Translations under genes and position numbers: made by a program
Shown here: one piece after another, positions 15,240-46,258 of the stretch
How positions within the stretch are numbered: position 1 is the stretch's first letter
Layout: every line of letters begins with the position of its first letter
The notes under the pieces: model-generated
Seen by the model: the letters and a program-made list of their open reading frames with translations, nothing else
What the model was told of the DNA's origin: nothing
The model's database searches: none
Origin: an uncultured Candidatus Binatia bacterium
GTDB taxonomy: Bacteria > Desulfobacterota > Binatia > Bin18
Assembly (NCBI GenBank): GCA_965242795.1
Contig: OZ251505.1
Span: 3,265,587 to 3,329,586 of the forward strand
Direction: 5' to 3'
DNA length: 64,000 nucleotides

Positions 15240-15410
15240 CCTTGGTTCTCAGCCAAGGCACCGCAAACCCGGGGACCTTCCCACCCCAAGTTCGTTGAGC
15301 TTGTCGAAACGAACCCCGATGTTACCTCGGCCCTCGCACCCCATCCCTAACCCTTCGCCCTTTGACACCCTTCGGCACCCTCAAGCCACCTCAAACTTAG
15401 GGACCATAGG
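15240..15410. repeat. Dispersed repeat family ('PFDKLR' element), copy 2
   Basis: ggggaccttcccaccccaagttcgttgagcttgtcgaaacgaaccccgatgttacc…cccttcgccctttgacacccttcggcaccctcaagcc…cttagggacc; compare 1180-1290 and 46290-46440. Confidence 0.55.
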
Positions 15411-15522
15411 GATTGCCCCTGCACCCGAATACAGATGTTCTGCGGGAGAAATTCTTCACCCTGATACGCTCCCGAACAATCCGGGACGCCATACGCCGCT
15501 GCACCGAGGAGGTCCGCTATCC

Positions 15523-30085: not shown

Positions 30086-30217
30086 GTGCGATCTTCCTCG
30101 ATGTCGGACTCGCCGAATGTGGCCGGACCCTAGCGCCGCGGCGTTTCGAGTGTCAACGCCGCGCGACGCCCACTCGTGGGAGGGTGCAGTTTCGTTTGCG
30201 GGGGCAGGTCTCGCGGC

Positions 30218-30283
30218 GGGGACCCCCCACCGGCTCGACTACGGGCTGACGCCCTTGTCTCGCCGACTCCCCCTCACCCTTCG
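30218..30283. repeat. GC-rich 62-bp element (solo copy) shared with the hsdS-embedded DUF559 cassette terminus (40833-40900, ~95% identical)
   Basis: ggggaccccccaccggctcgactacgggctgacgcccttgtctcgccgactccccctcaccc versus gacgaccccccaccggctcgactgcgggctgcgcccttgtctcgccgactccccctcaagggggg. Confidence 0.65.
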
Positions 30284-30289
30284 ACCATC

Positions 30290-33200
30290 TCAAGACACCG
30301 CCGGCTCGGGGACTCGGGAGGCGACGGCCCAGCCCGCGGACAGGACTTCGGCCTGCTCCAGGACGGTGCGCGTGGCCTGCTCCCGCTTGTCGGGCGGATA
30401 ACCGTGTTTGCGCAGAATGCGCTTGACCAGGACGCGCAACTGCGCGCGCACGTTCTCGCGCAGCGTCCAGTCGATGGTGACGTTGCGGCGCACCGTCTCG
30501 ACCAGTTCGCGCGCAATGGCGCGTAGGGGTTCGTCGCCGAGCACGCGGACCGCGCTGTCGTTGGTCTCCAGCGCGTCGTAGAAGGCGATCTCGTCCTCCG
30601 ACAACCCGAGCGCGGCGCCGCGGGCGTTCGCCGTGCGCAGGTCGCGGGCGAGGTGGATCAACTCTTCGATCACCTGCGCGGCTTCGACGGCGCGGTTCCG
30701 ATAGCGGCGCAAGGTCTGCTCCAACATGGCGCTGAAGGTGCGCGCCTGGACCACGTTCCGGCGCCCGCGGGCGGTGATCTCGCCCTTCAGGAGTTTCTGC
30801 AGCAGATCGACGGCCAGGTTGCGCTGCGGCATGCCCCGAACCTCGGCCAGAAAGTCGTCGGAGAGGACCGATACGTCGGGCTTGTCCAGCCCGGCCGCGG
30901 CGAAGACGTCGGTCACGCCCGCGGACGCGACCGCGCGCGAGATGATCTGCCGGACGGCGCGGTCCATCTCGTCCGCGGGCCGTGCCGCGCCCGGCGCGCG
31001 TTTCGCCAGTACCGCCCGCACCGCCTGGAGGAAGCCCACGTCGTCGCGGATGCGCAGCGCGTCCGCGTGGGGTACCGCCAGCGCGAACGCGTGCGACAAG
31101 GCGTGCACCGCCTGCAGGCAGCGCTCCTTGCCGTCGGGCTGCGCCAGCACGTGTTCCTGCGCCGCGGGCAACAGGCCCAGCCGCTGCGCCGGCGTGCCGG
31201 CCGCCCACGCCGCCCGGTCGAAGCCGTGGAACAGGCCGCAGCAGACCTCGTATTTTTCCAACAGCACCGCGACCGCGTCGGCCTGGTCCAGCGCGGCGCG
31301 CCCGGCGCCACCGCCCTCCGTATAGGTCGCCAGCGCGCGGCGGAGTTCGTGGGCCACGCCCAGATAATCGACCACCAGCCCGCCCGGCTTGTCCCGGAAC
31401 ACGCGGTTGACCCGGGCGATGGCCTGCATCAGCGCGTGGCCGCGCAGCGGTTTGTCCAGATACAGGGTGTGCAGGCTGGGCGCGTCGAAGCCGGTCAGCC
31501 ACATGTCGCGCACCAGCACCATGCGCAGCGGGTCCGCGGGGTCGCGGAAGCGGGCGGCCAGCGCCTCGCGCCGGGGTTTGGTGCGGATGTGCGGCTGCCA
31601 GTCGGGCGGGTCGGCCGCGGCGCCGGTCATGACGATCTTGAGTGCCCCCTGTGCGTCGTCCGGGGCATGCCAGTCCGGGCGCAGGCGCACCAGTTCCCGG
31701 TACAGGGCGATGCAGATGCGCCGGCTCATGCACACGACCATCGCCTTGCCGTCGAGCGCTGTGAGTCGCTGCTCGAAGTGCGTGACCAGGTCGCGGGCCA
31801 CGAGCGCCAGCCGCTGTTCGGCGCCGACCACCGCTTCGAGCTGCGCCCAGCGCGACTTGAGCTTTTCCTTGCGCGCCGTCTCCTCGCCCTCGGTCGCTTC
31901 CTCGAAGTCGGAGTCGATGCTCGGGCGTTCGCGTTCGTCCAGGGCGAGCGCGGCCAGCCGGCTTTCGTAGTAGATCGGGACCGTGGCCCGGTCTTCGACC
32001 GCGCGCTGGACGTCGTAGATGCTGATGTAGTCGCCGAACACGGCGCGCGTGTTGGCGTCGCGCAATTCGACCGGCGTGCCGGTGAAGCCCACGAAGGCGG
32101 CGTGCGGCAGGGCGTCGCGGATGTGGCGTGCGTAGCCGTCGATGAAGTCGTACTGGCTGCGGTGCGCTTCGTCGGCGATCACCACGATGTTGCGGCGCTC
32201 GGACAACGCCGGGGTCGGTGCGGGGTGCGACTCCCGTTCCTCGGACGTATCGGACCGGAGGCGGGCGAGACCCCCGCGTGCCCGGGAGGGAGGCGCGGCC
32301 GGCGCTTCCGGAAAGAATTTCTGGATGGTGGTGAAGATGACGCCGCCGGACGCCACGGCGAGTTTGGCGTGCAGGTCGGCGCGGCTGTCCGCCTGGACCG
32401 GCGGCTGGCGCAACAGGTCCCGGCAGCGCGCGAAGGTGGCGAACAACTGGTCGTCCAGGTCGTTGCGGTCGGTCAGCACCACCACGGTCGGGTTCCGCAG
32501 GGCCGGCTCGCGGACGATGCGCCCGGCGTAGAACGCCATCGTCAGGCTCTTGCCCGACCCCTGCGTGTGCCAGACCACGCCGATGCGGCGGTCGCCGGGT
32601 TCGCCGCCCGGCTTGCGTCCCGCCTCGTAGCGGCCGCCGGCCCCTTCGCCGACGGTGTCGGCCTCCTGTTGCAATTCGGTCGCGCGCAGGGTTTCGGCGA
32701 CCGCGATCTCGACCGCGTGGAACTGGTGGTAGCCCGCCATTTTCTTGACGGGCGCGCCGTCGTCCTCGAAGACGATGAAATCGCGCACCAGCGCCAGAAA
32801 GCGGGCCGGCGCGCACACGCCCTTCAGCAGCACTTCGAGTTCGGGCCGTGCCGGATCGGCCAGCGCGGCGCCGGCAATCGTGCGCCACGGCTTGAACCAC
32901 TCGCGCCCCGCGGTCAGCGTGCCGATGCGCGCCTCCACTCCGTCGGACACGATCAGCGCGGCGTTCAGGGCGAACAGGGCGGGCAACTCGGCCTTGTAGG
33001 TCTGCAACTGGTGCCACGCGGTCCAGACGGTCGCGTCCTCGTCCGCGGGGTTCTTCAACTCGACGATGCCGAGCGGCAGGCCGTTCACGAACAACATCAC
33101 GTCGGGCCGCCGCTCGCGTTGCTGCTCCACCACGGTGAACTGATTGACCGCCAGCCAGTCGTTCTCGTCCGGCTCATCGAAGTCGAGCACGCGCGCCTGC

Positions 33201-33532
33201 GCCCCGCGGACCGCGCCGCCGTCGGGGCGATATTCCACGGTCACACCGTCCACGACCATGCGGTGAAAGGCGCGGTTGCGGGTTTCCAGCGTGACGCCGT
33301 CCGGCCGGGTCAGCCGGCGGACCGCGGCGTCAAGCGCGTCTGCCGGCAGGGCGGGGTTGAGGCGGGCCAGCGCGTCGCGCAGCCGCGGCTCCAGCACGAC
33401 CGCGGCGTAATCGGCGCGCTCCGCCCCGGGCGTTCCCGGTGCGATGTCCGGCCCGGAGGCGACCGACCAGCCCAGGCCGCGCAGCCAGTCGAGCGCCGCG
33501 TCCTCGACGGTGGATTCGGTGAAGTCGGTCAC
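30290..33532 (-). CDS. hsdR: Type I restriction enzyme R subunit (HsdR), ~1080 aa
   Basis: Probable GTG start at [22 protein letters not shown] (classic HsdR N-terminus). Helicase motif I …[11 protein letters not shown]…, DEAH box [10 protein letters not shown], motif VI …QAIARVNR…; C-terminal helical domain. Track ORF 30290..34330 over-extends at the 5' end. Confidence 0.9.
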
Positions 33533-34293
33533 GCGGCCAGATCCTCGCGCGCGGTCTCCCGCCTCGACCACGGCACCGGCCGCACGTCGTAGCGCCGTAT
33601 CGCGTCCGACACGTTCTCCGGGATGGCTCGGTCCGTATCGTTCAGAATGGCGTAGGCGCGGGACTCCGGGGCACGGGTCTCTCTGGTGTCGATCCAGGAG
33701 AAGGCGACCGCCTGTGCGGTGTCGCGGTTCGGTCGGTTGATCGTCCGCAGGACCCGCTCCGGCTGCGCCCGCGACTTCGGAATCACGAAATCGAACCGGT
33801 GATCGTATCCGCTCTTCCCGGTGAACTTCACGTTCGGCGTATAGCGAACCTCGGAAAGGTCGAGCCACGCCACGACGTCCTCGTAGAACAGGCTCTGGAC
33901 CGTGGGCGACGCCAAGGAGAAGAGATCGCCTACGGCGAGCATCGCCTGCACGAGGTTGTGCTTCCGCAGGGGAAAGTTGTCCGACGTCGCTCGAACTTCG
34001 AGTGCCTCCCGGCTGATCTGCACGCCGAACCCGTTGACCGTCGTTTTGAGGAGCGCCTGCCGTTTGGGGCTCCCGAGGGGGCAGCCGGACTGCTCCAGGT
34101 CGCCCAGCACGTACCCGTCGTCCGTCAATACGAATCCGCCATTGGCCCGTTTGACGTAGATTTGGAGGCAGTCGTTGTGCCGGTCCAGGTACGGCGTGGT
34201 GATTTCGATCCAGTCCTCGGTCCGGCGCAGACTCGTCCTGTCCCGTACCCAGGTCGCGTAGCGGTCCACGAGCGCCTGCACGTCTTCGATCAT
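33529..34293 (-). CDS. DUF1828/DUF1829-family protein (commonly associated with type I R-M loci)
   Basis: 254 aa from [16 protein letters not shown]…; ATGA overlap with the hsdR start region. Family assignment is from memory of sequence character, not a computed search. Confidence 0.5.
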
Positions 34294-34739
34294 GTGAACA
34301 ACCCTCGCCGGATGATGGGCGGGTCCACAACGTGACAGAACCGCAGGAAATCTTCGAGAGTTCGCCACGGATCGTTCACGTTCACGAAACGGTCGCCCGG
34401 AACCGGAGCCGCCCACTTGTCGCCGTATCCCTCGCGGTAGAGATGGATGTGCGGCGATCCGATCTCCTCTCCATCCGGGTTGCGGTGCGGTGCCCCGCCG
34501 AAATCGAGCCGGACGAGGACCACGACCTGTCGTCCGCGCTGTTGATAGGTGCCTTTCGCAAGATCGATTCGCGCCCGGGGGATGTCGAGCAGAAACGCCT
34601 CGCGCCGGTCGGTCGAAGCCAACGGAACCGTCACTCGTCCTCCGAAGTCCGGGTAGTCGTACTCGGTCTCGTCGACTCGGCGCTTCTCCATTCTCAGGAG
34701 GGCGTCGGCCTCAGCCTGCGTAAGGTCATGATTCGCCAT
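34290..34739 (-). CDS. Hypothetical protein (149 aa) in the hsd-embedded cargo
   Basis: …[45 protein letters not shown]…; possible His-containing active-site-like motif (PHIHLY). ATGA overlap with the DUF1829 gene. Confidence 0.4.
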
Positions 34740-34754
34740 CGAAGTTGCTCTTTA

Positions 34755-35894
34755 TTACGTGTGCAGGTCCGGGGGGTCCTCACTCGGAATGACGTCGGCA
34801 ATGCGGGCATGCAGCAAGTGCCAGCGCTGGCCGGTGCGCTCCAGGTCGCCTTTTATGACGACCGGCGCCTTGGCGGCGTGGGCGTGAATCGCGCGGTCGT
34901 AGTCGGATTGCGGCAGAACGGCGCTGACGGACTGGATTCGTCCGTCGATGTACGTGCGCAGCGTGATGGCCCCGCCGGTCTCCCGTCCGTCGCGTTGCAG
35001 GCGTTGCACGAGGCCGACCAGTTGCGCGTCCGGTTGCGGTTCGCGCTCGCGGAACGACCGGGCCGCCTCGCGCAGGATCGGCGCGTCGGCCTCGGCGAAA
35101 CGGACGACCGTGCGCACCGTGTCCAGCGGACGGGTGCGCGCCCAGGTCAGGCTGACGTCCAAGGTCGGGAACGGTCCGATCAGGTCGGCGAGCGATTCGC
35201 ACAAGTTGGCGCTCGTCCCGTGGACGACCGCGTTGGAGAAGGCCGCGGCGTCGCCGCCCACCGTTCTTTCCGTTGCCTCGCGGGTAGCGCTCAACGCTTC
35301 GGTCAGACGCCGCGTCATGCGCCGTTCGATCGGGTCGTCGTCGGGGGCCACGTCCAGGGCGAGCAGGGGTTGCGTGGGGGGCGGCACGACCGGAGGCAAC
35401 AAGGTCACGACGTAACTCCCCTGTTCGCTTTGCCCCAAGCGCACGCAGCCGACATAGGCGCTGGCCTCTCGGTTCGCGCCGGCGCGATAGAGCGGTCGCG
35501 GCTCGCGCAACGAGCAGGCCGCGGCCAGCAGCATGTCGTAGGCGCCGCGGAGGAGGCTGACCCCGTCGTTGACGGCTACGGAACCGGTGTCGTCGGGGGC
35601 CACCCGCACCCGGATGACGTCGCGGTCGGCGGTCACCAAGTCGCGGTAGAGCGCGAGTTCGTCCATGTCGGCAACCCGCGCGAAAATGTCGATGAGTTGC
35701 GCAACGACGGCGGCGTAGTCGCCGAGGCGCTGGGTGCGCGGCACGACGATCTCCGGCAGCCCGTCCGCGGCATACACGTCGGAATGATCGCCGTAGGGTT
35801 CGCGCCTGACCCATCCCGCAGCGCGGGCATAGGCCGAGAGGGCCGCAGGGGAAACCGCGGTCAAGGCTTCCGTGTCCCGGATGCTGGCTTTCAT
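34755..35894 (-). CDS. Hypothetical protein (379 aa), translationally coupled to the upstream DUF4365-like gene
   Basis: Start MKASIRDTEALTAVSPAAL… overlaps the stop of the preceding gene (ATGA at 35891-35894). Ordinary globular composition; no known motif recognised. Confidence 0.5.
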   Translation of the reverse strand: MKASIRDTEALTAVSPAALSAYARAAGWVRREPYGDHSDVYAADGLPEIVVPRTQRLGDYAAVVAQLIDIFARVADMDELALYRDLVTADRDVIRVRVAPDDTGSVAVNDGVSLLRGAYDMLLAAACSLREPRPLYRAGANREASAYVGCVRLGQSEQGSYVVTLLPPVVPPPTQPLLALDVAPDDDPIERRMTRRLTEALSATREATERTVGGDAAAFSNAVVHGTSANLCESLADLIGPFPTLDVSLTWARTRPLDTVRTVVRFAEADAPILREAARSFREREPQPDAQLVGLVQRLQRDGRETGGAITLRTYIDGRIQSVSAVLPQSDYDRAIHAHAAKAPVVIKGDLERTGQRWHLLHARIADVIPSEDPPDLHT

Positions 35895-36391
35895 CGGACG
35901 GTCCCTCCTCTCGATTGGTCCATCAATGCGCGCAGACCTTCGACAGTGAACAGATTCCCCGTCGGGATTCGGACGGTGACGGACGATCGATTGTCCGATT
36001 CCTCGGCCCCTTGCAAGTTCAGCCAATAGGCGCTCCGCCGCAGTATGAGCTCGTCCGCGGTGATCGTCATCCAGCGGTGCTCGTCCCTCGGCAGGTCGAG
36101 TACGACGAGCAGGCGCGGCGTCTGGGTCGGCTGACGTAACAGATCGTAGTTTCGACGTTTGAGGGGGAAGTGAAAACGTCCTTCATGCGGTTCGCTCAGA
36201 TTGATCGTTGCCTTCAATTGCAAATCGAGCGCCGGGCGCATCGCCCCGCCGGCTTGAATTCGCAGGTCCACGCCGTCCCGGTCCGGGTCGGGGATGGACG
36301 TGACGTAGCCGGTCCGTGCCGCTACGGCGTACGCATAGGCGCGGGAGAGGGCTTCTTGCCGGTCGGGGGCGGTCAGGAGGGTGTCGGTCAT
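35891..36391 (-). CDS. DUF4365-like PD-(D/E)xK-fold protein
   Basis: 166 aa. …IPDPDRDGVDLRIQAGG…LDLQLKAT… fits a D…(D/E)xK restriction-endonuclease-like core. The family call is tentative. Confidence 0.5.
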   Translation of the reverse strand: MTDTLLTAPDRQEALSRAYAYAVAARTGYVTSIPDPDRDGVDLRIQAGGAMRPALDLQLKATINLSEPHEGRFHFPLKRRNYDLLRQPTQTPRLLVVLDLPRDEHRWMTITADELILRRSAYWLNLQGAEESDNRSSVTVRIPTGNLFTVEGLRALMDQSRGGTVR

Positions 36392-36689
36392 AGGATGCTT
36401 TCACCTGTTTTTCAGGATTGCGGCTCTTGAGAGATTCGATCCGCGGGACGGCGGGTGAGGCAGCCGATTGGGACATTGGGGAGAGTCTCGGGGGCTTGTC
36501 GGCCCGCAGTTGACCGGAAAAGGGGGGCCAGGGCAAGAAGACAGGCTGGCGGTCGTGCATCCGTTTCGGTGGCGCTGCCCGGGAACGTGGGCGTTCCGCC
36601 CGCCTGTGGTGCGGACTGGAAGCCCGCGTTCCCAGGAAGAATAAGGCCAATCGATGCACGCCCGAAGGCTCAAGGCAGCCGGGTTCTTT

Positions 36690-36750
36690 CCTCCGATCAC
36701 CTCCCCCTAGTCCCTGAGATGGTCGAAGGATGAGGGGGAGTGATAGGAAG
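36690..36750. repeat. Near-perfect 12-bp inverted repeat (atcacctccccct…agggggagtgat) in a 410-bp intergenic gap; shares the 'gggggagtgat' motif with 40885 and 40968
   Basis: gatcacctccccctagtccctgagatggtcgaaggatgagggggagtgatagg. Confidence 0.4.
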
Positions 36751-36802
36751 GGCGCCCTACGGGCACGCTAAAGAATGGATATAACGTAGCCGGTCCACGC
36801 AG

Positions 36803-37474
36803 CTACGATGCTGGAACTGTCACATGGACCACAGCCCGTTCGGCAGGAAGTATCGACTCAGCAAAGGAGCCATCCTGCACGGGGAGCCTGTCAGCATATC
36901 GAGCCGACGCGGTGTGGTAGAAATTCCTGAGAATGAAGTCGATAAACCAGAAAGGCGTCATTGGGGCCGTTACCGGGATCCGGCAGTTTTGGTATTGGCC
37001 GAGCGTCAAATGAGACTTAGGATGTGTTAGCTCTCGGTGACGGCCGTCCCGAGCGTCATAGTCAAAACGCACCGGAAACGGAACGATGTTCCTGGAGAGC
37101 ACATCAGCGTAGATTTCGTCGTCTTGGTAGATATCCGGATTGTTCTGGAATTCTTCAAGGTGGGGTGCAGAGAAAAACGCAAGTCGGTGACGTTGCAGCG
37201 TTCCATTGACGAAGGCGTATGTCATCTGAATCAATGCGCCGTCAAGCATCTTTGCGTTGTAGGCACGCTCTTGGACAAGACTTTGGTAAATTTCCTCGTA
37301 TGGACGATCCTTTAACGCTTCTGACACATGTTCAGCTTTGTCAAAAGTGACTTGCACAAGATTATTAGCACCAGACTTTTGGAACGCAAAGCGTTGATCG
37401 TCGACGAGACTCCTCTCAACTAAATACTTGATGATTTCGTTGACTTGCTTTTCAACCTGATTGGAAGTTGGCAC
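36803..37474 (-). CDS. Hypothetical protein (223 aa; possibly DUF2290-like), upstream partner of the NERD-helicase
   Basis: Low-GC codon usage matching the helicase gene. Lies 5 nt upstream of the helicase stop and is presumably co-transcribed. No catalytic motif recognised. Confidence 0.5.
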   Translation of the reverse strand: MPTSNQVEKQVNEIIKYLVERSLVDDQRFAFQKSGANNLVQVTFDKAEHVSEALKDRPYEEIYQSLVQERAYNAKMLDGALIQMTYAFVNGTLQRHRLAFFSAPHLEEFQNNPDIYQDDEIYADVLSRNIVPFPVRFDYDARDGRHRELTHPKSHLTLGQYQNCRIPVTAPMTPFWFIDFILRNFYHTASARYADRLPVQDGSFAESILPAERAVVHVTVPAS

Positions 37475-37479
37475 GATCC

Positions 37480-39642
37480 TTATCCTTTCTCCATCAAGAG
37501 GGTTCGCAGTTTGGCCCGTTTGTTCCCGTCTAGGTCCTCAATATGAACATCACCCGATTCGATGTCTGCAATTAAATTGGCTAGGCTTCTTTCGTGGCTT
37601 TTCAATCGCTTGCGACCCTGCATTGTCATATCTCGATGAATGATCCACAACTTGTTACGTTGTTCTTTCGTAGGGTAGACGAATTGCAACTCGAAATCTT
37701 GTCGTCTTAGCTTCTGGTATTCTTCTTCAAGTTTCTTCATGTTATTACCGACACCGAGAACACGGACCCATGCTTTGCTTCGGGTTACGGCTGTAAAGAG
37801 ACGGTTCCGAATACTCGCTAAGTTCCACGCCGTTGAGTGACAGTCTTGTGCGTTGATGATATAAACCATTCCGGCTTCATTACCTTTAGCGCGATATATT
37901 CCGGTGAATGTCACAGAGGTCGAATCTGGCTGGAAAAAAACGTCTGCGGGGGTGTCGACTCCAGCGAGGTGGGAATCGATGCCCATTTCCAATAAGCGTC
38001 TACGTATTGGCCCAACATTTTGCCGGGTCGTAAGGGGATCAGGGTTGATGACAATTATGTCGTCATGTTTGAGTTCGTCGTTCTGAAGGTTGTTCCTGAT
38101 TTCGTTAGCCAACCATTCAGCCTGGGACTCATCATCGTCGAATTTTTTGAATAGGACAAGGTCGTCAACAGGGGAATGGTTTTCGAGGAATGCTGGGCTT
38201 GAATCTGTCGTCCTGTGAAGAATAATGTGCGACCCTTCCCTTAACTCTCCCGCTTTGTTGTAGTAGCCGACATCTTCCCATAGCTGCGGATGTTCAAACA
38301 TCTGGATGAGACCTGTCTCACTTAAATCTGATGGTTCCCGATATATGCCAAATCCGAGCGCATGTGCTGTTACAAGAACAGGACGTGAGTTACGGTAACA
38401 CTTTTTCAGAATGATATCGCATTGTGGCTCATCGCTTCCCGCATCATTGAATCTCACTTTGGGGGACCCGTCAGCCTTTTTCCCAAAGATTTCTTCCGGT
38501 GAGGATAAGGACTCTCCAGAGAGGCTCTGCAACTCATCGTAAGCATAAACCAGTCTTTTGGGGTATTTTAGCAATTCGTAACAGAGTCGCAGAAACATGG
38601 GGGAAAAGTCCTGTGCCTCGTCTAGGAGAACTGCGTCGTAGAGATGCTTGCTTTGATGGACTTGATTAAGCGCGTGTTCGCATGCCCCGGAAAATTCCTT
38701 TTCCCTACCGAACTTATCTCTCGCCGCTCCGAAATCGAAGTAGTCAATGTCATGTTGGCGACAAAATTCGTAATAAATTCCGTCACGTTCGCTGCTACCA
38801 GGAGCTCCCCACGCGGTGACGATTCGTAGAATATTCCAGTCAGGCTCCTCGCCCGTTTGTTCTATGGAAAATTTATTTATCAGACGACGAAAATGTCCCT
38901 TCAGCGAACGAGTATTGAATGTGACAGCTATACGCCATTCAGGATGTTGTGCGTGGAGATAGGCTGCTTTCAGTGCTAAGATGATAGTCTTACCCGAACC
39001 TGCTAAGCCGCGGATGCGCTGTACTCCTTCGACTGTTTCGATAACCGCCCGGATTTGTCTATTATCGAGCGTAGAGATCGAATTTTCAAGTTCTTTGAGT
39101 CTGTAGCCTCGAGAGTTGTTTTTTGTAGTGGTCCGGCCGAGCTTATTTTTTCTAATCGTAGAAACACTTTCGATTACGGACAGCGATTTCTCGTATATTT
39201 CTTTGCTTGAATTCTCCCATCTCAAATTCTCTAGCTCGTGGATAAGGGAACGAGAATTGGCGAGGGGGTAGCTGCATTCCGAGGATAGATTCAATTTACT
39301 AATTCCCGGCGCAAACGAAATCGTATGGACCGGGATAAGGAGCTTTCTTTGTAGCATTAATTCTCGATGAGTTTTAAGTCGCCCTTCAAGCTTGTTGGCA
39401 GAGTCATCTTGTCGAAATTGGTAATCTCCGGCCTCAGACCCCTCTATCAGGTCAAATAGAACGATTCCTTTGTCTGCAGACACAAAGATCGCGTCAATTA
39501 GATGGCGTCCTTCGGACGTGTTGATGATTGGATATCCGATGAACAACTGGCCCGCTAAAGCAGTCTGAGAGGAAAACATTTCAACCAGAAACTGACTAGA
39601 AGCAGGCTTCTGATTGGTTCCTTGAACTATGTTTATGCTCAT
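37480..39642 (-). CDS. NERD-domain / superfamily-1 (UvrD/Dna2-like) helicase, 720 aa
   Basis: N-terminal NERD-like segment (…GYPIINTSEGRHLIDAIFVSADKGIVLFDLIEG…). Walker A IRGLAGSGKT, motif II VLLDEAQDF, motif VI-like TAVTRSKAW. ~45% GC. Confidence 0.8.
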   Translation of the reverse strand: MSINIVQGTNQKPASSQFLVEMFSSQTALAGQLFIGYPIINTSEGRHLIDAIFVSADKGIVLFDLIEGSEAGDYQFRQDDSANKLEGRLKTHRELMLQRKLLIPVHTISFAPGISKLNLSSECSYPLANSRSLIHELENLRWENSSKEIYEKSLSVIESVSTIRKNKLGRTTTKNNSRGYRLKELENSISTLDNRQIRAVIETVEGVQRIRGLAGSGKTIILALKAAYLHAQHPEWRIAVTFNTRSLKGHFRRLINKFSIEQTGEEPDWNILRIVTAWGAPGSSERDGIYYEFCRQHDIDYFDFGAARDKFGREKEFSGACEHALNQVHQSKHLYDAVLLDEAQDFSPMFLRLCYELLKYPKRLVYAYDELQSLSGESLSSPEEIFGKKADGSPKVRFNDAGSDEPQCDIILKKCYRNSRPVLVTAHALGFGIYREPSDLSETGLIQMFEHPQLWEDVGYYNKAGELREGSHIILHRTTDSSPAFLENHSPVDDLVLFKKFDDDESQAEWLANEIRNNLQNDELKHDDIIVINPDPLTTRQNVGPIRRRLLEMGIDSHLAGVDTPADVFFQPDSTSVTFTGIYRAKGNEAGMVYIINAQDCHSTAWNLASIRNRLFTAVTRSKAWVRVLGVGNNMKKLEEEYQKLRRQDFELQFVYPTKEQRNKLWIIHRDMTMQGRKRLKSHERSLANLIADIESGDVHIEDLDGNKRAKLRTLLMEKG

Positions 39643-39662
39643 AGGCGGCTCCTTTTATTGTC

Positions 39663-41627
39663 CTAGCTTTTATCGCCTGATGGTTCATGGACATCCCTCT
39701 CGAGATTTGAAACTGGATATTCTAACTCATCTGAAATAAGTCTCAGTAGCAACGTATCTCGTACTGAAGTTAATGTGCAAATTTCCTTCTCGTGTAACAA
39801 AATCGTTTTATGGATTGGATGGCTCATCTTCTCAAACCATCTTATTAGATTTGATCCCGGATTCAAAATGGACAAATTACTAAAGGTGGACTTGTTCATA
39901 TTCCCAAATACAGACCCTCCACTTCCTCCCGCTAGGACCTCGGCCGATAAGCCTCTACATGCCCAATACAAATATTTGATCATCCGCCTGTCATTAGGAA
40001 CTATACTGTTGATTTGCTGGTTAGTGTGAGTCTCTCTATGGTTGATGACTACAAGCCCGGGTGTAGCTATGCAACTCATCGACATACTACCTGGGGGCAA
40101 GGCTTTCGTAGGCTGAGATGAAGCGCCTGCGTATGAAAGCATAGTGTGGGTGTGCATTACATATATCCTTTTATGCATATCAGGGATTTTCAAGAATGGG
40201 ACGTCCGCTCCGTAGAAGGCCGGATTGTGTGTATCTGGGGTTTTTCCAGTAACTATTGTTCCAAACTCTTTCAATTTCTTCAAGGCCCATCTTCTTGGGA
40301 TCGGACCGACAGCAGATTTCTCGAACCCATCCGGGAACAGGGCCACAACCTCCGGGTCCATCCCGTCGAGATAGGCACGGGCGCGTTCGACCGTCCACGC
40401 CGTGGTTCCCTTCCTATCATTCCCCCCTTGAGGGGGAGTCGCAGTCGCCAAGCCTTCAGGCGCCGGCGACTGCGGTGGGGGGTCCCCCGCTACCGCCTCG
40501 TACACCCGCTCCAACACCCCGAAACAGTTCTCGAAGACCTCCGTATTCCAGAAGCGGAGCACGCGGTAGCCCCGCGCCCGGAGAAAGGCGTCGCGCTTCT
40601 CGTCCCGGCTCGTCTGTTCCGCATGCTGGCCGCCGTCGAGTTCGATGAGCACCTTGCGGGACAGACAGGCGAAATCGACGATGTACGGACCGATGGGTTG
40701 TTGGCGGCGGAACCGGTAGCTGCCGAGTTGTTTGTTGCGGAGGTAGTGCCAGAGGAGTCCTTCGGCGTCGGTGCGGTTGCGGCGGAGGGCGCGGGCGGCG
40801 GTCAAGGCGCGACGGGAGTAGCCGCGGCGGACGACCCCCCACCGGCTCGACTGCGGGCTGCGCCCTTGTCTCGCCGACTCCCCCTCAAGGGGGGAGTGAT
40901 GAGACGGGGAAACCGGCGGGGAGGAGAGTCTCCCATGGGCCGTGGCCGTTTCGTCTCCTGCTTGCAACGGGGAGTGATGGGATGAGGCACGGCGCTTGAG
41001 GGCGGCTTTGGCGTGGACGGGGTCGAAATCGACGAACCAGGACTTGAACAGCGCCCGCGCCATATCCTCCAGCGTGGCGTTCAGGCGGCGGTTCAGGGCG
41101 ATCTTGTCGTCCAGCGTGCCGAGGACGTGGGCGATGCGGTGTTGCTCCGGGAGCGGCGGCAGCCGGAGTTCCAGCCGCGCGATGTCGTCGGGCCGGATGG
41201 ACGGATAGGCGGAGACGCTGTGCTCGGCGATGGTGTGCAGCCGCTCGACGACATGGCCTTGCGCCAGAAACCAGTAGAGGAAGTCCGTATGTGCCACGCC
41301 GGCCTTGCCCCGGATGACGGCGAAGGCGGTCGAGACCAGCAGATTGTCCGGCGGGTCTTTCAGCAGGCCGAAGTGGCGCTGGTCCGGGCGCACGGTCGAA
41401 TACACGATGTCGCCCGGCTGCACCTTGCGGCGCGCCCGACTCGGAATCTTGTCGGTCCCCGGCACCAGGCGGCGGATGGTACCAACGCGATTGTCGGTGA
41501 CGTTGCCGGTATCGAGATAGTGGATGAACGGCCACGCCTCTTTCGGCGAATACGTGGCGTCGTTGATGACCGCGCAGTCGCCCAGGGTCACGGTGCGCCA
41601 CTGAACCGTATTCGATACGGAAGCCAT
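39663..41627 (-). CDS. hsdS: Type I restriction-modification specificity subunit HsdS with an in-frame ~200-aa DUF559 (Vsr-like endonuclease) insertion in the central conserved region; low-GC TRD2
   Basis: TRD1 plus central conserved helix (…LPPLPEQHRIAHVLGTLDDKIALNRRLNATLEDMARALFKSWFVDFDPV…). Then the insert with a DUF559 core (…LLWHYLRNKQLGSYRFRRQQPIGPYIVDFACLSRKVLIELDGGQHAEQTSRDEKRDAFLRARGYRVLRFWNTEVFEN…). Then resumption (…ARAYLDG…) and TRD2. 654 aa versus ~400-450 typical. Confidence 0.8.
   Translation of the reverse strand: MASVSNTVQWRTVTLGDCAVINDATYSPKEAWPFIHYLDTGNVTDNRVGTIRRLVPGTDKIPSRARRKVQPGDIVYSTVRPDQRHFGLLKDPPDNLLVSTAFAVIRGKAGVAHTDFLYWFLAQGHVVERLHTIAEHSVSAYPSIRPDDIARLELRLPPLPEQHRIAHVLGTLDDKIALNRRLNATLEDMARALFKSWFVDFDPVHAKAALKRRASSHHSPLQAGDETATAHGRLSSPPVSPSHHSPLEGESARQGRSPQSSRWGVVRRGYSRRALTAARALRRNRTDAEGLLWHYLRNKQLGSYRFRRQQPIGPYIVDFACLSRKVLIELDGGQHAEQTSRDEKRDAFLRARGYRVLRFWNTEVFENCFGVLERVYEAVAGDPPPQSPAPEGLATATPPQGGNDRKGTTAWTVERARAYLDGMDPEVVALFPDGFEKSAVGPIPRRWALKKLKEFGTIVTGKTPDTHNPAFYGADVPFLKIPDMHKRIYVMHTHTMLSYAGASSQPTKALPPGSMSMSCIATPGLVVINHRETHTNQQINSIVPNDRRMIKYLYWACRGLSAEVLAGGSGGSVFGNMNKSTFSNLSILNPGSNLIRWFEKMSHPIHKTILLHEKEICTLTSVRDTLLLRLISDELEYPVSNLERDVHEPSGDKS
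40414..40900 (-). mobile_element. Inverted-repeat-bounded DUF559 cassette inserted in-frame into hsdS (miniature selfish element candidate)
   Basis: tccccccttgagggggagt at 40414-40432 and its inverted counterpart gactccccctcaaggggggagtgat at 40868-40892 flank the DUF559-coding segment. The 5' flank carries the 62-bp GC-rich element also found at 30218-30283. The flanks translate as HSPL(Q/E)GE mini-repeats inside HsdS. Confidence 0.4.
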
Positions 41628-41969
41628 GTTGCGAACAATATCAGGGTCGCGGAGCTTTTCCTGGTATCCTTGCTAATGAGAATTACGGAGGGGCGCCAAG
41701 GCGTCCACGCTCTCCCTTTCTTTTCCCTTGGTCCCGAAATGCTCCAGGTGTCGGCCTTGCTAAGCGCGGATTCCTCCACGATTCAGACGCATTTTCACGA
41801 CGCGGAGGCTGGCGACCGTCACGTCGTCGGAGTCCTCTTCGTAGCCAGTGACGACGACGCGCCGGGCGTCCGGATGAGTCTCCAAAGCCCGGAGCAATTC
41901 CCTGACGGTCGTGGCGTTCTCTCCAACGTCCCTAACGCGGCTCCGTTCCGCGAAATCATCGGAAGCCCG

Positions 41970-42275
41970 CGTATCGGTCATCTGTGGCCGGCAAAAGAAT
42001 TTGTCGGCCATTTTTGGCGAAAAGTGGCCGGCAACGCGCGTTGTCGGTCATGGGTGGCCGATAGCGCCGTTCGTCTCGAAAGGGCGCCATCAATCCAGAC
42101 CGCCGGCGGCCGTGGCGTCGCAATCATACCCGTCTTCGCCATCCACGGCTCCGGCTCGATAGAGTTCCTTCCGTATCGGTCATCCATGACCATCAAAGGA
42201 ATTTGCCGGCCATTTTTTGCGGAAAGTGGCCGGCAACGCGCGTTGTCGGTCATGGGTGGCCGATAGCGCCGTTCC
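41970..42275. repeat. Two ~105-bp direct repeats (41970-42072 and 42171-42275), each containing reiterated tcggtcatNNgtggccggcaa sub-motifs; in the fic-hsdS intergenic region
   Basis: cgtatcggtcatctgtggccggcaaaagaatttgtcggccatttttggcgaaaagtggccggcaacgcgcgttgtcggtcatgggtggccgatagcgccgttc repeated with ~90% identity. Confidence 0.7.
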
Positions 42276-43374
42276 CGCCCTCCACGGTCTCGATGAGGTC
42301 GGAGAACGCGAGCACGGTCGTCCGGCGGCCTCTGCCGCGGCCGATGACGCTCAGAATGCCGCCCTCGCACAACGCGTCCACGAGGCGCCGCGCCGTTCTT
42401 GCCGGAATGCCGGCATCGGCAACGAAATGGGAACTGCGGAAGATCGGTCGCTCGAAAATCCAGTCCAATGCGCGGATGGCGTATCGGGAGCGCGTCAGAT
42501 TCGGCACGCGCCGCTTCATGTCGTCGTAGAGGGCGAGAATCCCCTTGGTCTTGACCAAGTTGTCTTCCGCCTGTGCCTGCACCGCTTCGAGGAAGAACCG
42601 ACACCAGCCGGTCCAGTCATCATCGCGTGAGACGCCCAGCAGTTGCTCATAGTAGATGTCCCGGTGCGCCTCGAAATAGGCGCTAATGTAGAACATGGGC
42701 CGTCCGATAATGCCGTGCTGCCACAAGAACAGGGGAATCAGCATCCGCCCGAGGCGGCCGTTACCGTCCAGAAATGGGTGCAGCGCCTCGAACTCGGCGT
42801 GGAGAATGGCGAGTTGCGTCAGCCGGTCGGGGGCGTCCCGGTGAACGTATCGCTCCCATCCGCTCATGGCACGGGTGAGCGTCTCGGCACCGGGAGGGAC
42901 GAATTTGGCTTGGTCGATGTCGCAGCCGGGCGGGCCGATCCAGTTGGGGACGCGCCGGTATCTCCCCGGGGACTTTCCTTTCCCGCGGACGCCGGACAGT
43001 AACACTTTGTGCACGCTGCGGAGGACGCGCTGGGAGAGCGGCAGCTTCTTCAGCATCTGCTCCGCTTGCCGCATGGCGGCCCGGTAATTGAGCACTTCAT
43101 GGATGTCGTCGCGGCGTTCGGGCGATTCCGCTTCCTGTCCGGCTTCGAACTCCATCACCTCGCCCATGGTGGCCTGCGTGCCCTCGATCCGTGAAGAAAG
43201 GACGGCCTCCCTGGTCGTCAGGGGCGCGAGCAGCACGTCGGGGTTCGGGACCGCGGAGAGCATCCCGTCGTACCGCGCGACCGCGCCGGCCGCCGGACCG
43301 ATCAGCGGGATCAGCGTCTGCCAGTCGAGACGCTCGGGCGGGAACTGCCCGGCGTGATAGTGGATGGGCGCCAT
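42250..43374 (-). CDS. fic: Fic/DOC-family protein (class II, N-terminal inhibitory helix) embedded between hsdM and hsdS
   Basis: FIC motif HPFLDGNGRLGR; alpha-inh-like motif SRIEGT near the N-terminus; 374 aa. The start ATG overlaps the hsdM stop (TGATG). Track ORF 42250..44319 is an over-extension. Confidence 0.85.
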   Translation of the reverse strand: MAPIHYHAGQFPPERLDWQTLIPLIGPAAGAVARYDGMLSAVPNPDVLLAPLTTREAVLSSRIEGTQATMGEVMEFEAGQEAESPERRDDIHEVLNYRAAMRQAEQMLKKLPLSQRVLRSVHKVLLSGVRGKGKSPGRYRRVPNWIGPPGCDIDQAKFVPPGAETLTRAMSGWERYVHRDAPDRLTQLAILHAEFEALHPFLDGNGRLGRMLIPLFLWQHGIIGRPMFYISAYFEAHRDIYYEQLLGVSRDDDWTGWCRFFLEAVQAQAEDNLVKTKGILALYDDMKRRVPNLTRSRYAIRALDWIFERPIFRSSHFVADAGIPARTARRLVDALCEGGILSVIGRGRGRRTTVLAFSDLIETVEGGNGAIGHP

Positions 43375-44963
43375 CAGTCCCCTCCGAATCCGAGGCGGCG
43401 CAGATTCTCCGCAATGGCGGCGTCCAGCTTCTTCGCCTCGGCCTGCTGGGCGCGGAGTTGCGCGGTGAGGCGGCGCATCTTGGCCTCGAACGACTCGCCG
43501 TCGTCCCGCGGGGCCGCCGCGCCGACGTAGCGGCCGGGGGTGAGCACGTGACCGTGGGCGCGGATGTCGTCCAGCGTAGTGCTTTTGCAGAAGCCGGGCG
43601 CGTCGACGTCCGTCCCCGTGCGCCACGCATGATAGGTATCGGCGATGCGGCCCACGTCGTCGGCTGCGAGTTCGCGGTGGGTGCGGTCCACCATGCGGCC
43701 CAGCTTGCGGGCGTCGATGAACAGCACGTGGCCGCGCCGCGGGCTGCGCGGGCGGTCGCGGGCGAGGAACCACAGGCAGGCCGGAATCTGGGTCGAGTAG
43801 AAGAGTTGGCCCGGCAGGGCGACGAGGCAGTCCACCACGTCGGCCTCGACCAGGCCGCGGCGGATGCTGCCCTCGCCGGCCTGGGTGGACGACATGGAGC
43901 CGTTGGCCAGCACGAACCCGGCCACGCCGGCGGGCGCCAGATGGTGCACGATGTGCTGTACCCAGGCGAAGTTGGCGTTGCCCTTGGGCGGCACGCCGTA
44001 GCGCCAGCGCGTGTCGTCGGCGAGCCGCTCGCCGCCCCAGTCGGAGACGTTGAAGGGCGGGTTGGCGAGGATGAAGTCGGCCTTGAGGTCGGGGTGGCGG
44101 TCGTCGTGGAAGCTGTCGCCCTGCGCGATCTGGCCGGCGATGCCGCGGATCGCGAGGTTCATCTGTGCGAGCCGCCACGTCGTATAGTTCGACTCCTGGC
44201 CGTAGATGGAGATGTCCGGCTTGGCGCCGCCGGGCATGCGCTCGCCATTGCCGTTGCCGGTCGCGTGCGCGTCGATGAAGGCGACCGACTGGACGAACAT
44301 GCCGGCCGAGCCGCAGCACGGGTCGTACACCCGGCCGCGGTAGGGCCGCAGCATCTCCACCAGGAGGGTGACCACGCAGCGTGGGGTGTAGAACTGGCCG
44401 CCCTTCTTGCCTTCGGCGCTGGCGAACTGCGACAGGAAGTATTCGTACACGCGGCCGAGCACGTCCTTGGACCGGGCGTCGGCGTCGCCCACGCGGACGT
44501 TGCCGACGAGGTCGATCAGCCGGCCGAGCTGCTGTTTGTCGAGGCCGGGGCGCGCGTAGTCCTTGGGCAGCACGTCCGCGAGCGCGGGGTTGTCGCGTTC
44601 GATGGCGGCCATAGCGTCATCCACGCGCCGGCCGACGTCGGGCTGCCGCGCCTGAGCCGCGAGATGCGGCCAGCGCGCCTCGGGCGGCACCCAGAAGACG
44701 TTCTGGGCGCGGTATTCGTCCGGGTCTTCCGGGTCGGCGCCCTCGGCCCGTTCGCCTTCGAGGCGGGCGTGCGTCTCGGCGAACGCGTCGGAGATGTACT
44801 TCAGGAAGATCAGGCCGAGGACGACGTGCTTGTATTCCGCGGCGTCCATACTGCCGCGCAACGCGTCGGCCATGCGCCACAGCTCGGCTTCGTAGCCGGT
44901 CGTGGCGCCGGACGGTGCGGCGTCGGTCTGCGGCGGGGTCTTCTTCGTGCGGGTACGGGCCAT
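43374..44963 (-). CDS. hsdM: Type I restriction-modification N6-adenine DNA methyltransferase subunit (HsdM)
   Basis: N-terminal HsdM_N helical domain (…[18 protein letters not shown]…). SAM motif I …[12 protein letters not shown]…, catalytic NPPF (…ILANPPFNV…). 529 aa. Confidence 0.9.
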
Positions 44964-45046
44964 GCCGTGCTGCTTCCGTGCCGGTTACGCTGCTGCAGGT
45001 CCGCGGCCGTCCGCACACGACGGGAGCGCGGAGGCGGGATGGGCGG

Positions 45047-46258
45047 TCATGTTTTCAGCCATTCCCCGACGGGTTTCAACAGGAAGGTTCCGACATCGAT
45101 CCCGTCGCTACCGACGAGCAGTTTGCGCGTCGGCCGGAACGCCGCGGAAAAGGCCGCCATGCCGGCCCGCGTGTCCGCCGGGCGCCCGCTCTTGACCTCG
45201 ATGGCGATCAGTCGGTTGCCTGCGCGCACCACGAAATCGACCTCGCGGCTGCGTTCGCGCCAGTAATGGACCGTACAATCGCCGGCGACCGCGGCGTTGG
45301 CCAGATGGGCGCCGACCGCGGACTCGACCAGCCGCCCCCAGAACACGCGATCGGCGCGAGCCTCGGCCAGGGTCACCCCCGCCTGCGCGGTGATCAGCGC
45401 GGTGTTGAAGACCTGGAGCTTGGGGCTCGAAGCCCGCCGCCGGACCGCGGCGCCGGCGTATTTTTGCAAGCCGGTCAGCAGCCCGGCCCCGGCCAACAGG
45501 TCGAGATAATGCGCCAAGGTCGTGGTGTTGCCCGCCTCCTGAAGCTGCCCCTGCATCTTGGTGTAGGAGAGAATCTGTCCGGAGTAGGCGCACCCCAACT
45601 CCAGCAGCCGGCGCAGCAAGGCGGGCTTGTCCACGCGCGAGAGCAGTAGCACGTCGCGGGAAACGACGGGTTCGATGAGCGCGTCCCGGACGTAGCGCGC
45701 CCAGCGGGGCGGCTGCCGGATCAGTGGCGCCGCCCCGGGATAGGCCCCGTAGAAGAGATATTGATCCAGTGACCAGTCGAAGGCTTCCCGCATTTCGGCG
45801 AAACTCCAATGGGGCAGCCGCAACACCTCGAACCGCCCGGCCAAGCTCTCGCCCAAGCCGCGCTCGACGAGCAGCGGCGCCGAGCCGAGCAGGACGACTT
45901 TGAGCGGTACGCCGGTGCGCGTGTCCGCGTCCCACAGCCGTTTGACGGTCTCGGACCAGCCCGTCACCTTCTGCACTTCGTCCAGCACCAGCAGCGCGCC
46001 GTTCGCGTCCGCCTCGTGGGTGAGGTTGCGCCCGGCTTCCCACTGTTGTTCGACCCACTCGGTGCCGCGCAAGGTCGGCTCGTCCGCGCTGGCCGTATGC
46101 GTCGGCAGGTCGGACCGCCGTACGGCATCTGCCACCAGGGTGGTCTTGCCGACCTGTCGCGCGCCGGCCACGACGTGAATGAAGCGTCGCGGCTCGGCCA
46201 GCCGATGGACGAGTTCCCGAACTTGAGGACGAGAATAGGACGACGATTTACTCAACAT
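45047..46258 (-). CDS. AAA+ ATPase, DUF4143 family (paralogue of the gene at 1-1073)
   Basis: Walker A GARQVGKTT, Walker B …LLVLDEVQ…, DUF4143-like C-terminus; 403 aa. Confidence 0.8.
   Translation of the reverse strand: MLSKSSSYSRPQVRELVHRLAEPRRFIHVVAGARQVGKTTLVADAVRRSDLPTHTASADEPTLRGTEWVEQQWEAGRNLTHEADANGALLVLDEVQKVTGWSETVKRLWDADTRTGVPLKVVLLGSAPLLVERGLGESLAGRFEVLRLPHWSFAEMREAFDWSLDQYLFYGAYPGAAPLIRQPPRWARYVRDALIEPVVSRDVLLLSRVDKPALLRRLLELGCAYSGQILSYTKMQGQLQEAGNTTTLAHYLDLLAGAGLLTGLQKYAGAAVRRRASSPKLQVFNTALITAQAGVTLAEARADRVFWGRLVESAVGAHLANAAVAGDCTVHYWRERSREVDFVVRAGNRLIAIEVKSGRPADTRAGMAAFSAAFRPTRKLLVGSDGIDVGTFLLKPVGEWLKT

Follow-up and report, generated by a model that had tools for sequence, protein, structure and literature searches.

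Within the 64-kb window analyzed here (64,000 nucleotides of contig OZ251505.1 from an uncultured Candidatus Binatia bacterium), a Type I restriction-modification (R-M) operon, hsdM-hsdS-hsdR, very probably serves as a scaffold for five other immunity modules that are nested in it or adjacent to it. Their cargo would be exchanged by recombination at the conserved operon backbone, with the second target recognition domain (TRD2) of HsdS swapped together with the defense gene or genes just downstream. The modules are already catalogued and the nesting of such genes was published in 2024; the locus is a dense instance of that arrangement, not an undescribed system. The earlier note on this DNA covered positions 30290-44963, and the run is extended here to 46258.

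Nested modules of the hsd operon

The run 30290-46258 lies entirely on the minus strand and comprises 13 items when a spacer and a 410-bp gap are counted (Table 1). Two housekeeping genes flank it, a SnoaL-like gene (46585-47010) and a gene of the xanthine dehydrogenase family (27671-30085). In transcription order it consists of an ATPase gene, hsdM, a Fic gene, the spacer, hsdS, a helicase gene, a DUF2290 gene, the gap that separates DUF2290 from DUF4365, the genes for the DUF4365, 379-aa, DUF6978 and DUF1828/DUF1829 proteins, and hsdR. The single strand and the order hsdM, Fic, 620-bp spacer, hsdS, cargo, hsdR had been read correctly in the earlier note; six genes lie between hsdS and hsdR where it had counted seven, and within two pairs its order was reversed, since the helicase precedes DUF2290 and DUF4365 precedes the 379-aa gene. 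The stop/start overlaps it described, including that of the Fic start with the hsdM stop, were read at four junctions: TGATG at hsdM/Fic, ATGA at both DUF4365/379-aa and DUF6978/DUF1829, and GTGA at DUF1829/hsdR. The intergenic distance between helicase and DUF2290 is 5 nt. These short or overlapping junctions suggest that the nested genes would share hsd transcription and translation. Payne et al. 2024 define embedded defense by extra same-strand genes between core genes, with no core pseudogenes, and the locus has this arrangement.

Table 1. Features of the locus and their matches (window coordinates unless a related locus is named)
Feature	Position	Strand	PADLOC model (E-value)	Source
AAA_14/DUF4143 ATPase	45047-46258	-	PDC-S01, PDLC04791 (8.3e-174)	PADLOC, Pfam
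hsdM	43374-44963	-		Pfam, PADLOC
Fic (SoFic-type, class-II)	42250-43374	-	SoFic (3e-109)	Pfam, PADLOC, PDB
Spacer Fic/hsdS, 620 bp	41628-42249	-		gene map, repeat analysis
83-aa ORF in spacer	41760-42011	-		ORF listing
hsdS, 654 aa	39663-41627	-		Pfam, PADLOC, AF2
hsdS part: TRD1 + CR1	41013-41627	-		Pfam, PADLOC, AF2
hsdS part: DUF559 cassette	~40394-40975	-		inverted repeat I2 (arms 40875-40922 + 40394-40441); Pfam, PADLOC, AF2
hsdS part: linker		-		Pfam, PADLOC, AF2
hsdS part: low-GC TRD2 + CR2	39663-40300	-		Pfam, PADLOC, AF2
UvrD-like SF1 helicase	37480-39642	-	Helicase, PDLC03002 (0; residues 3-717 of 720)	Pfam, PADLOC
DUF2290 protein	36803-37474	-	DUF2290, PDLC02999 (4e-96)	Pfam, PADLOC
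Junction segment, slot 2a/2b	36503-36807	not assigned		blastn, repeats
DUF4365 protein	35891-36391	-	PDC-M02A (3e-57)	Pfam, PADLOC
379-aa protein	34755-35894	-	PDC-M02B (9.4e-123)	PADLOC
DUF6978 protein, 149 aa	34290-34739	-	PDC-M24A (3.9e-56)	Pfam, PADLOC
DUF1828/DUF1829 protein	33529-34293	-	PDC-M24B (4.9e-103)	Pfam, PADLOC, PHROG
hsdR	30290-33532	-		Pfam, PADLOC
Solo DUF559-hairpin copy, 82 nt	30212-30292	-		D10 + D11 repeats
52-53-aa DUF1829 remnant ORF	L084 14915-15076; L002 14971-15132; L083 10052-10210; L085 15188-15349; L086 9210-9371			

The core genes were examined for the domains of a Type I R-M system, and those of HsdM, HsdS and HsdR were all found. HsdM matches Pfam N6_Mtase (1.8e-102) and HsdM_N (6e-26) and PADLOC MTase_I (2e-205), with NPPF and DPCCGSAG motifs in its translation. 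HsdR combines HSDR_N (2.4e-45), an N-terminal PD-(D/E)xK nuclease, with SWI2_SNF2 (1.5e-73), T1RH-like_C (5e-128), ResIII and T1R_D3-like in Pfam; it matches PADLOC REase_I at E=0, and its translation holds GSGKS and DEAH motifs. HsdS has two Methylase_S stretches in Pfam, and PADLOC Specificity_I models match aa 9-223 and aa 433-638. In its AlphaFold2 (AF2) model TRD1, the first conserved region (CR1), TRD2 and CR2 reach a predicted local distance difference test score (pLDDT) of 80-94, with the two TRDs parted by conserved helices. An exact-sequence look-up of HsdS returned no record, yet a 100%-identical cluster representative stands among its homologues. All three hsd open reading frames (ORFs) are full length, with hidden Markov model (HMM) coverage from end to end and intact motifs. 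The ratio of nonsynonymous to synonymous substitution rates (dN/dS) against relatives was 0.16-0.22 for hsdM and 0.17-0.23 for hsdR, and the full range of 0.14-0.29 over hsdM, the TRD1 part of hsdS and hsdR is that of purifying selection and argues that the R-M genes are maintained. The locus has the look of an intact Type I R-M operon in which immunity genes are nested; methylation and restriction activity are predicted for it.

It is very unlikely that the operon is instead a decaying relic, broken by an 8-kb insertion that parts hsdR from hsdMS and by a DUF559 domain that inactivates hsdS. The full-length ORFs and the hsd dN/dS values argue against decay, and the insert, foreign and about 200 aa long with low AF2 confidence as a relic might show, sits in the CR1-TRD2 linker and leaves the four canonical HsdS elements well modeled. 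Both deletions of DUF559 seen in relatives keep the hsdS frame, and 94 of 120 homologues among the matches listed keep the same architecture. Eroded-gene remnants do occur, as a DUF4365 5' fragment (36775-36807) and DUF1829 mini-ORFs in relatives, and would fit a broken operon.

Every nested gene matches a PADLOC defense or candidate model, with E-values of 4e-56 to 0. The view of candidate anti-phage modules in the earlier note was sound insofar as defense-type modules are nested in an R-M hotspot, whereas the label 'undescribed' fails because all of them match PADLOC models. Two pairs had been called not obviously named systems; Helicase+DUF2290 is validated against phage T7, and PDC-M02 and PDC-M24 are catalogued. 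The DUF559 domain inside hsdS and the PDC-S01 ATPase, which lies outside the interval it covered, had gone unnoticed. The argument of the note repeats the 'guilt-by-embedding' reasoning set out in Payne et al. 2024.

The Fic protein is of class II, as had been predicted, and of the SoFic type. PADLOC SoFic aligns over residues 6-364 (3.1e-109), Pfam finds Fic_N and Fic, and the SoFic structures 3eqx/3zcn in the PDB match at 4.6e-35. SoFic proteins are recognized by Fic_N with a Fic core HxFx(D/E)GNGRxxR and an intramolecular inhibitory motif (S/T)xxxE(G/N); the translation holds the HPFLDGNGRLGR core and SSRIEG as inhibitory motif. SoFic is a validated abortive-infection AMP-transferase with a published mechanism (Millman et al. 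2022; PMC12249575). The window protein has in common with it Fic_N, the Fic core, a C-terminal domain, the HPFxDGNGR motif and an N-terminal (S/T)xxxE(G/N) motif, and its gene differs in that the start overlaps the hsdM stop, which would couple its translation to that of hsdM. In E. coli, Sofic is a toxin reported to need a small downstream antitoxin, AS1, of 47 aa (SoFic literature). No homologue of AS1 was identified, and the 83-aa ORF downstream of the window gene is likened to it by position only. This ORF gave no Pfam, PADLOC or PHROG match; its protein identity is merely 71-73% in the related loci L001 and L084, and a 38%-identical counterpart lies between hsdM and hsdS in the Dehalococcoidia metagenome-assembled genome (MAG) L004 (3665-3814). 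The spacer is repeat-laden, as described before: two 103-nt direct repeats (family D2; 41970-42072 and 42172-42274; 91% identical) duplicate the last Fic codons and ~80 nt downstream, and the copy at 42172-42274 runs into the Fic 3' end. The same 103-nt duplication of the Fic 3' end was observed in L001, L084 and L085.

The helicase (GC 45-47%) matches Pfam UvrD_C_2 and UvrD-helicase. The NERD label given to its N-terminus was rejected, as Pfam NERD (PF08378) had no match at E<=0.01 and the PADLOC 'NERD+UvrD' model (C3a187) aligns just to residues 189-392, which are the helicase core. The DUF2290 gene (Pfam 6.8e-51) adjoins it, and the pair has the gene content of Helicase+DUF2290, a system that experimentally inhibits phage T7 (Rousset et al. 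2022, PMC9122126); phage protection by the window pair is predicted. Both are two-gene modules of an ATP-dependent UvrD-like helicase and a DUF2290 protein, with full-length PADLOC matches in the window. The validated system comes from a P4-satellite hotspot of an enterobacterium, whereas the window module sits in the hsd operon of a high-GC bacterium and is linked to TRD2.

PDC-M02 (M02A and M02B adjacent) consists of a DUF4365 nuclease and a partner with a predicted OB (oligonucleotide/oligosaccharide-binding) fold. DUF4365 (Pfam 1.4e-23) belongs to a PD-(D/E)xK-type nuclease family and, according to titles and abstracts, is the nuclease domain of SPARDA-type short Argonaute systems. M02B represents a large conserved family of ~380 aa without a Pfam domain, and its C-terminus is predicted to form the OB fold; Foldseek against the PDB gave no whole-protein match and only weak OB-fold matches. 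M02B would plausibly act as a sensor, of single-stranded DNA or of a phage protein, with control over the DUF4365 nuclease. It is also the gene that differs most between the window and L001 (15935-17068), at 75.8% nucleotide and 70% protein identity against 92-96% for its neighbors; in this putative sensor subunit the difference reflects either a local hot spot of divergence or the replacement of an allele. PDC-M24 (M24A and M24B adjacent) is directly coupled to hsdR by its overlap and consists of a DUF6978 protein (Pfam 2.2e-44) and a protein with Pfam DUF1828 and DUF1829 that also matches PHROG 5059 (7e-70). DUF1829 has been implicated, in published work, in a DNA-binding, antitoxin-like partner subunit of HipAD, and PDC-M24 might by analogy act in a similar way. 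PDB sequence searches with PDC-M02B, PDC-M24A and PDC-M24B returned nothing meaningful. The single-gene PDC-S01 (Pfam AAA_14 1.1e-21, DUF4143 1.1e-26) lies upstream of hsdM; it is present in L001 and absent from four of the five related loci that reach upstream of hsdM (L002, L084, L085 and L087), and is variable cargo too. The five self-contained modules, with SoFic as AMPylating abortive-infection toxin between hsdM and hsdS, would most likely act independently as layers of defense.

The PDC models are phage-defense candidates that Payne et al. 2024 (10.1101/2024.01.29.577857) obtained from genes lying within Type I R-M, BREX and DISARM operons and then entered in PADLOC. The embedded systems of that preprint (Payne, Hughes, Fineran & Jackson 2024; Type I R-M, BREX, DISARM, Hma) likewise have immunity genes nested among hsdM, hsdS and hsdR on one strand, and the window genes match its candidates PDC-M02, PDC-M24 and PDC-S01 as well as known systems. 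Compared with that account, as far as it is available, the window differs in having five modules in one operon and, together with its relatives, in showing cassette turnover at one site and a link between TRD2 and cargo.

The co-occurrence proposed in the earlier note was borne out. An HsdR scan of species-representative genomes yielded 80 loci (53-76% identity) spread over many phyla, archaea among them, and window proteins were compared with these loci by tblastn. Upstream of hsdR we found Helicase+DUF2290 in a Latescibacterota MAG (L006), DUF4365+M02B in L009 and L056, DUF6978+DUF1829 in L010, L052 and L056, DUF1829 without its partner in L041 and a Methanoregula MAG (L047), and an 83%-identical PDC-S01 ATPase directly upstream of hsdR in L041. 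DUF6978 and DUF1829 also occur together in L091, which has HsdS and no hsdM or hsdR within the 21 kb read. In all, the PDC-M02 pair is kept in L001, L009, L056 and L088-L091, and the PDC-M24 pair in L001, L010, L052, L056 and L091. Four loci with further M02B homologues again have DUF4365 adjoining, and three of these four (all but L091) lie inside hsd operons that also hold SLFN_AlbA_2 and HEPN-MNT modules and, in one, DUF1828/1829. In hsd operons of unrelated phyla the two genes of a pair occur together, and each pair occurs independently of the others. PHROG matches place relatives of the nested genes in (pro)phage genomes as well. The distance between hsdM and hsdR was at least 2.5 kb in 38 of the 48 loci with hsdM upstream of hsdR, by which nesting is the rule in this hsd family.

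Cargo turnover at one chromosomal site

Seven related loci reached via HsdS homologues (L001, L002, L083, L084, L085, L086 and L087) have the same operon backbone. Six of them include one or both flanking housekeeping genes; L086 is a short contig with the operon only, and L087 ends inside hsdS and informs slots 0 and 1 only. The cargo of L001 is the same as in the window. L083 carries an SLFN_AlbA_2 + PemK pair, TRD2 of type A, Helicase-DUF2290 and a PIN pair, and L002 carries SLFN + PemK, TRD2 of type C, a KAP NTPase and a PIN pair. L084 has Fic with type C, the KAP NTPase and a PIN pair; L085 has Fic + HEPN with type B, a 451-aa gene and a PIN pair; and L086 has SLFN + PemK with type B, a segment 81% identical to that of L085, and a PIN pair. 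The place of Fic, slot 1, is taken by an SLFN_AlbA_2/HATPase_c_4 gene in L002, L083, L086 and L087.

The backbone segments conserved in blastn comparisons, in window coordinates, are 47053-46579, 44980-43382, 41600-40300, 36790-36503, 34323-34215 and 33612 onward, with variable slots between them. Homology breaks at 40304, the start of TRD2, and is regained at 36741-36503 and in the two segments after that. The TRD2 type predicts the next cargo: type A goes with Helicase-DUF2290 (3/3), type C with the KAP NTPase (2/2) and type B with the same 2-kb segment (2/2). Slot 1 (Fic or SLFN) and TRD2 (type A, B or C) are found in every one of their six possible pairings, which requires recombination between the operon halves, with a breakpoint in the center of hsdS.

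TRD shuffling in Type I hsdS genes is the exchange of domains at the conserved central region. The breakpoint here likewise falls in the central conserved region or linker, with TRD1 kept and TRD2 replaced; the difference is that the exchanged unit extends past hsdS to the next defense gene or genes, by which specificity and cargo change together. We propose that exchange proceeds by homologous recombination at hsdM, the TRD1-CR1-DUF559 half of hsdS, the 240-nt junction and hsdR, and that a crossover hot spot in the center of hsdS would swap TRD2, which is half of the R-M specificity, with the defense gene or genes just downstream.

The composition of the slot-2a cassettes is consistent with such exchange. 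The low GC of the helicase pair and TRD2 that had been reported was confirmed, at 46.4% over 36803-40300 against 66-71% for the backbone genes (hsdM 70.8%, hsdR 71.4%, whole window 63.5%). The GC step is sharp at both ends of this block, whose upper edge at ~40300 falls on the first codons of TRD2. All slot-2a TRD2-plus-cargo cassettes lie below backbone GC, at 46%, 50.5% and 54%. The block looks like a foreign acquisition, judging from composition and cassette polymorphism. Comparison of the type A cassette of L083 with that of the window gave 80-89% identity against ~92% for the backbone, which indicates that the cassettes predate the backbone split or were gained independently of it. No donor was found, as blastn against plasmids returned distant helicase matches at 66-75% identity only.

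The junction between slots 2a and 2b, ~240-290 nt long, is recognizable at 77-90% identity in each of the six related loci that extend this far, and in L002, L084 and L085 blastn homology resumes there past their non-homologous cassettes. It holds a hairpin motif (36715-36741; fold z = -1.8; I7 and D8 repeats) and the 33-nt DUF4365 5' remnant at 36775-36807. This remnant at the right edge of the type A cassette suggests a donor that was another hsd operon, one in which PDC-M02 was nested. A discrete mobile element, transposon or integrative, is very improbable as the carrier of TRD2, helicase and DUF2290 in place of homologous exchange. Such an element could account for the sharp GC steps, for the same-family, same-orientation hairpins that bracket the block (40394-40441 and 36715-36741) and for a RAYT-like transposase ORF between hsdS and hsdR in L036, yet neither an integrase nor a transposase nor a tRNA gene is present in or beside the block in the window. 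Moreover, the left boundary is within a coding region and coincides exactly with the conserved LFPD...GW motif, a known site of TRD recombination; in relatives, alternative cassettes fill precisely the same interval; and the DUF4365 fragment implies a nested hsd operon as donor. The 64-kb window as a whole has no tRNA gene, and thus no sign of a tRNA-targeting integrative island, and no Rfam family, and thus no sign of a known regulatory RNA.

On the other side of the junction, the relatives display erosion of the modules that are intact in the window. L086 keeps a 113-nt DUF4365 fragment. PDC-M24B is reduced in L002, L083, L084, L085 and L086 to a 52-53-aa ORF that joins, in frame, ~25 codons from the start of DUF1829 to ~27 from its end. 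The overlap of this ORF with the hsdR start is 4 nt long in each of the five loci, as seen directly in L084 (GTGA) and from gene coordinates in the others. This observation suggests that translational coupling to hsdR would be preserved even after loss of PDC-M24. As PDC-M02 and PDC-M24 are intact in the window and L001 and eroded elsewhere, they appear to be ancestral at the site. L001 also has an 82-aa fragment with AAA_15/AAA_21 N-terminal motifs between DUF2290 and DUF4365 (15180-15428), probably the remnant of another ATPase-based module; the window is without these ~160 nt.

Several points weigh against the scaffold account. A promoter/terminator consensus scan did no better than on shuffled sequence, and the 620-bp and 410-bp gaps could hold promoters. 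An HsdS with a ~200-aa insert may fail to assemble an active complex. Seven related loci, most of them from a single metagenome series, make up the comparison, and the linkage counts are correspondingly small. The literature searched held no validation of anti-phage action for PDC-M02, PDC-M24 or PDC-S01. Finally, the slots of relatives hold classical toxin-antitoxin pairs (PemK, PIN/VapBC-like, HEPN-MNT), by which the slots also collect addiction modules.

The last two points would fit nested genes that are mainly selfish passengers, addiction or toxin-antitoxin-like, gathered because insertions in hsd operons are tolerated and hard to lose. PemK, PhdYeFM/PIN and HEPN-MNT pairs in the same slots are what such a process would leave, SoFic is itself a toxin with an antitoxin requirement in E. 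coli, and DUF1829 occurs in the antitoxin-like HipAD partner. We regard this as unlikely to be the main explanation. Helicase+DUF2290 and SoFic are experimentally protective, the same pairs turn up in hsd operons of distant phyla and in PHROG families of prophage origin, and many toxin-antitoxin pairs double as abortive-infection defenses, so that the two readings overlap. In relatives, an MNT-type nucleotidyltransferase domain is fused in frame to the HsdS N-terminus in L083 (3718-5970), L002 (10001-12241), L085 (10001-12283) and L036 (6968-9082), and a HEPN (NTase_sub_bind) gene lies directly upstream of it in L085 and L036. The window HsdS is without this extension. HEPN with MNT-HsdS looks like a HEPN-MNT toxin-antitoxin pair whose antitoxin joined HsdS.

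An in-frame DUF559 cassette in hsdS

The hsdS gene encodes 654 aa owing to an insert of ~200 aa, which separates the end of CR1 (…WFVDFDPVHAK) from the linker before TRD2 (…WTVERARAYLDGMDPEVVALFPD). The insert contains DUF559, a Vsr-like endonuclease domain (Pfam 1.4e-39, aa 275-379, core 40491-40805), bounded by G/C-rich inverted hairpins that are translated in frame as …SPLEGES… and …TPPQGG…. In the AF2 model it is poorly resolved (pLDDT 30-65) and lies between disordered linkers. Among the matches listed, Methylase_S and DUF559 occur in one protein at the same position in 94 of 120 (40-90% identical), so that the architecture recurs in more than 90 protein clusters; many of these homologues have, in addition, an MNT-type nucleotidyltransferase at the N-terminus. 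In the Nitrospirota MAG L036, an HsdS with a different TRD1 holds a DUF559 of 42% identity at this site. The hsdS gene of L086 has one intact hairpin and no DUF559, that of L087 shows a partial deletion of independent origin, and the reading frame is kept in both. DUF559 also exists as stand-alone genes (167-180 aa, 55-70% identical), which encode the same hairpin-derived end peptides as the insert. The dN/dS of the DUF559 core, 0.2-1.95 on 7-19 substitutions, hints at relaxed constraint. A full-text search for 'DUF559', mostly covering titles and abstracts, returned no description of the insertion in HsdS.

Copies of the hairpin family stand at cassette or homology boundaries, both just past the hsdR stop and between DUF2290 and DUF4365 (36715-36741). 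The former, the solo copy of the 5' hairpin arm and leader, starts at the hsdR stop and is 96-100% identical to 40833-40887; homology between the window and L085 ends exactly there. The 10-mer core GAGGGGGAGT occurs four times in the 64-kb window, each time within this locus, against a chance expectation of 0.16.

On these features the cassette reads as a discrete minigene tolerated in a surface linker of HsdS, and it may be a homing-like selfish element, a nuclease appendage with a function or a hot spot of recombination. It is conceivable, if doubtful, that the minigene is a mobile cassette which colonizes the central linker of HsdS in many lineages and whose palindromic ends mark or create the hot spots at which TRD2 and defense genes are swapped. 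A stronger version is that it may be a nuclease tethered to the methyltransferase complex with its own function, homing into empty hsdS alleles or nicking at specific sites. Rickettsia palindromic elements and homing-endonuclease insertions are in-frame selfish insertions in protein-coding genes. The DUF559 cassette resembles them in being inserted in frame, bounded by palindromes, placed in a tolerant surface linker and polymorphic for presence, absence and decay; unlike them it encodes a Vsr-like nuclease domain and has no intein or LAGLIDADG features, and its mobility is putative. Integron-like attC sites were rejected as an identity for the hairpins, as there is no integrase and the left breakpoint lies inside a coding motif.

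Further observations concern DUF559 and repeats elsewhere. Two closely related contigs of one locus differ at hsdS, which in L088 (6597-8030) encodes 477 aa with Methylase_S and DUF559 and in L089 (6590-8029) 479 aa with Methylase_S only; this may be another DUF559 presence/absence or replacement polymorphism. The L036 ORF between the DUF559-containing hsdS and hsdR (9200-9775) was judged by eye to be an IS200/RAYT-like Y1 transposase. In the window, a 59-nt inverted repeat pair (1211-1269 and 15284-15342, 88% complementary) brackets 14 kb and holds the 13-mer TTCGACAAGCTCA; in L001, L002, L084 and L085 the loop of the DUF559 5' hairpin is the reverse complement of this 13-mer. A 249-nt direct repeat (5746-5994 and 8208-8456, 85% identical) spans 2.5 kb between copies.

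Implications for nested immunity

Herein, an hsd operon located between a SnoaL-like and a xanthine-dehydrogenase-like gene emerges as an unusually dense and well-preserved example of defense systems nested in a Type I R-M operon. The general picture of defense islands stays unchanged. Together with its relatives the locus is a small natural experiment, one backbone with six cargo combinations, that points to the sites where cassettes break and rejoin. For PDC-M02 and PDC-M24, two unvalidated candidates, the window offers intact copies in synteny that could be cloned directly, and the OB fold predicted beside the DUF4365 nuclease is a first structural hint for PDC-M02B. Beyond the existing catalogue, the locus adds the TRD2-cargo exchange pattern, the erosion series of PDC-M24 and PDC-M02 and the DUF559 cassette that recurs in frame in HsdS. 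Through TRD2, a change of R-M specificity is inherited together with the neighboring defense gene. The mobile-cassette reading of DUF559, if true, would tie this change of specificity to the turnover of nested immunity genes.

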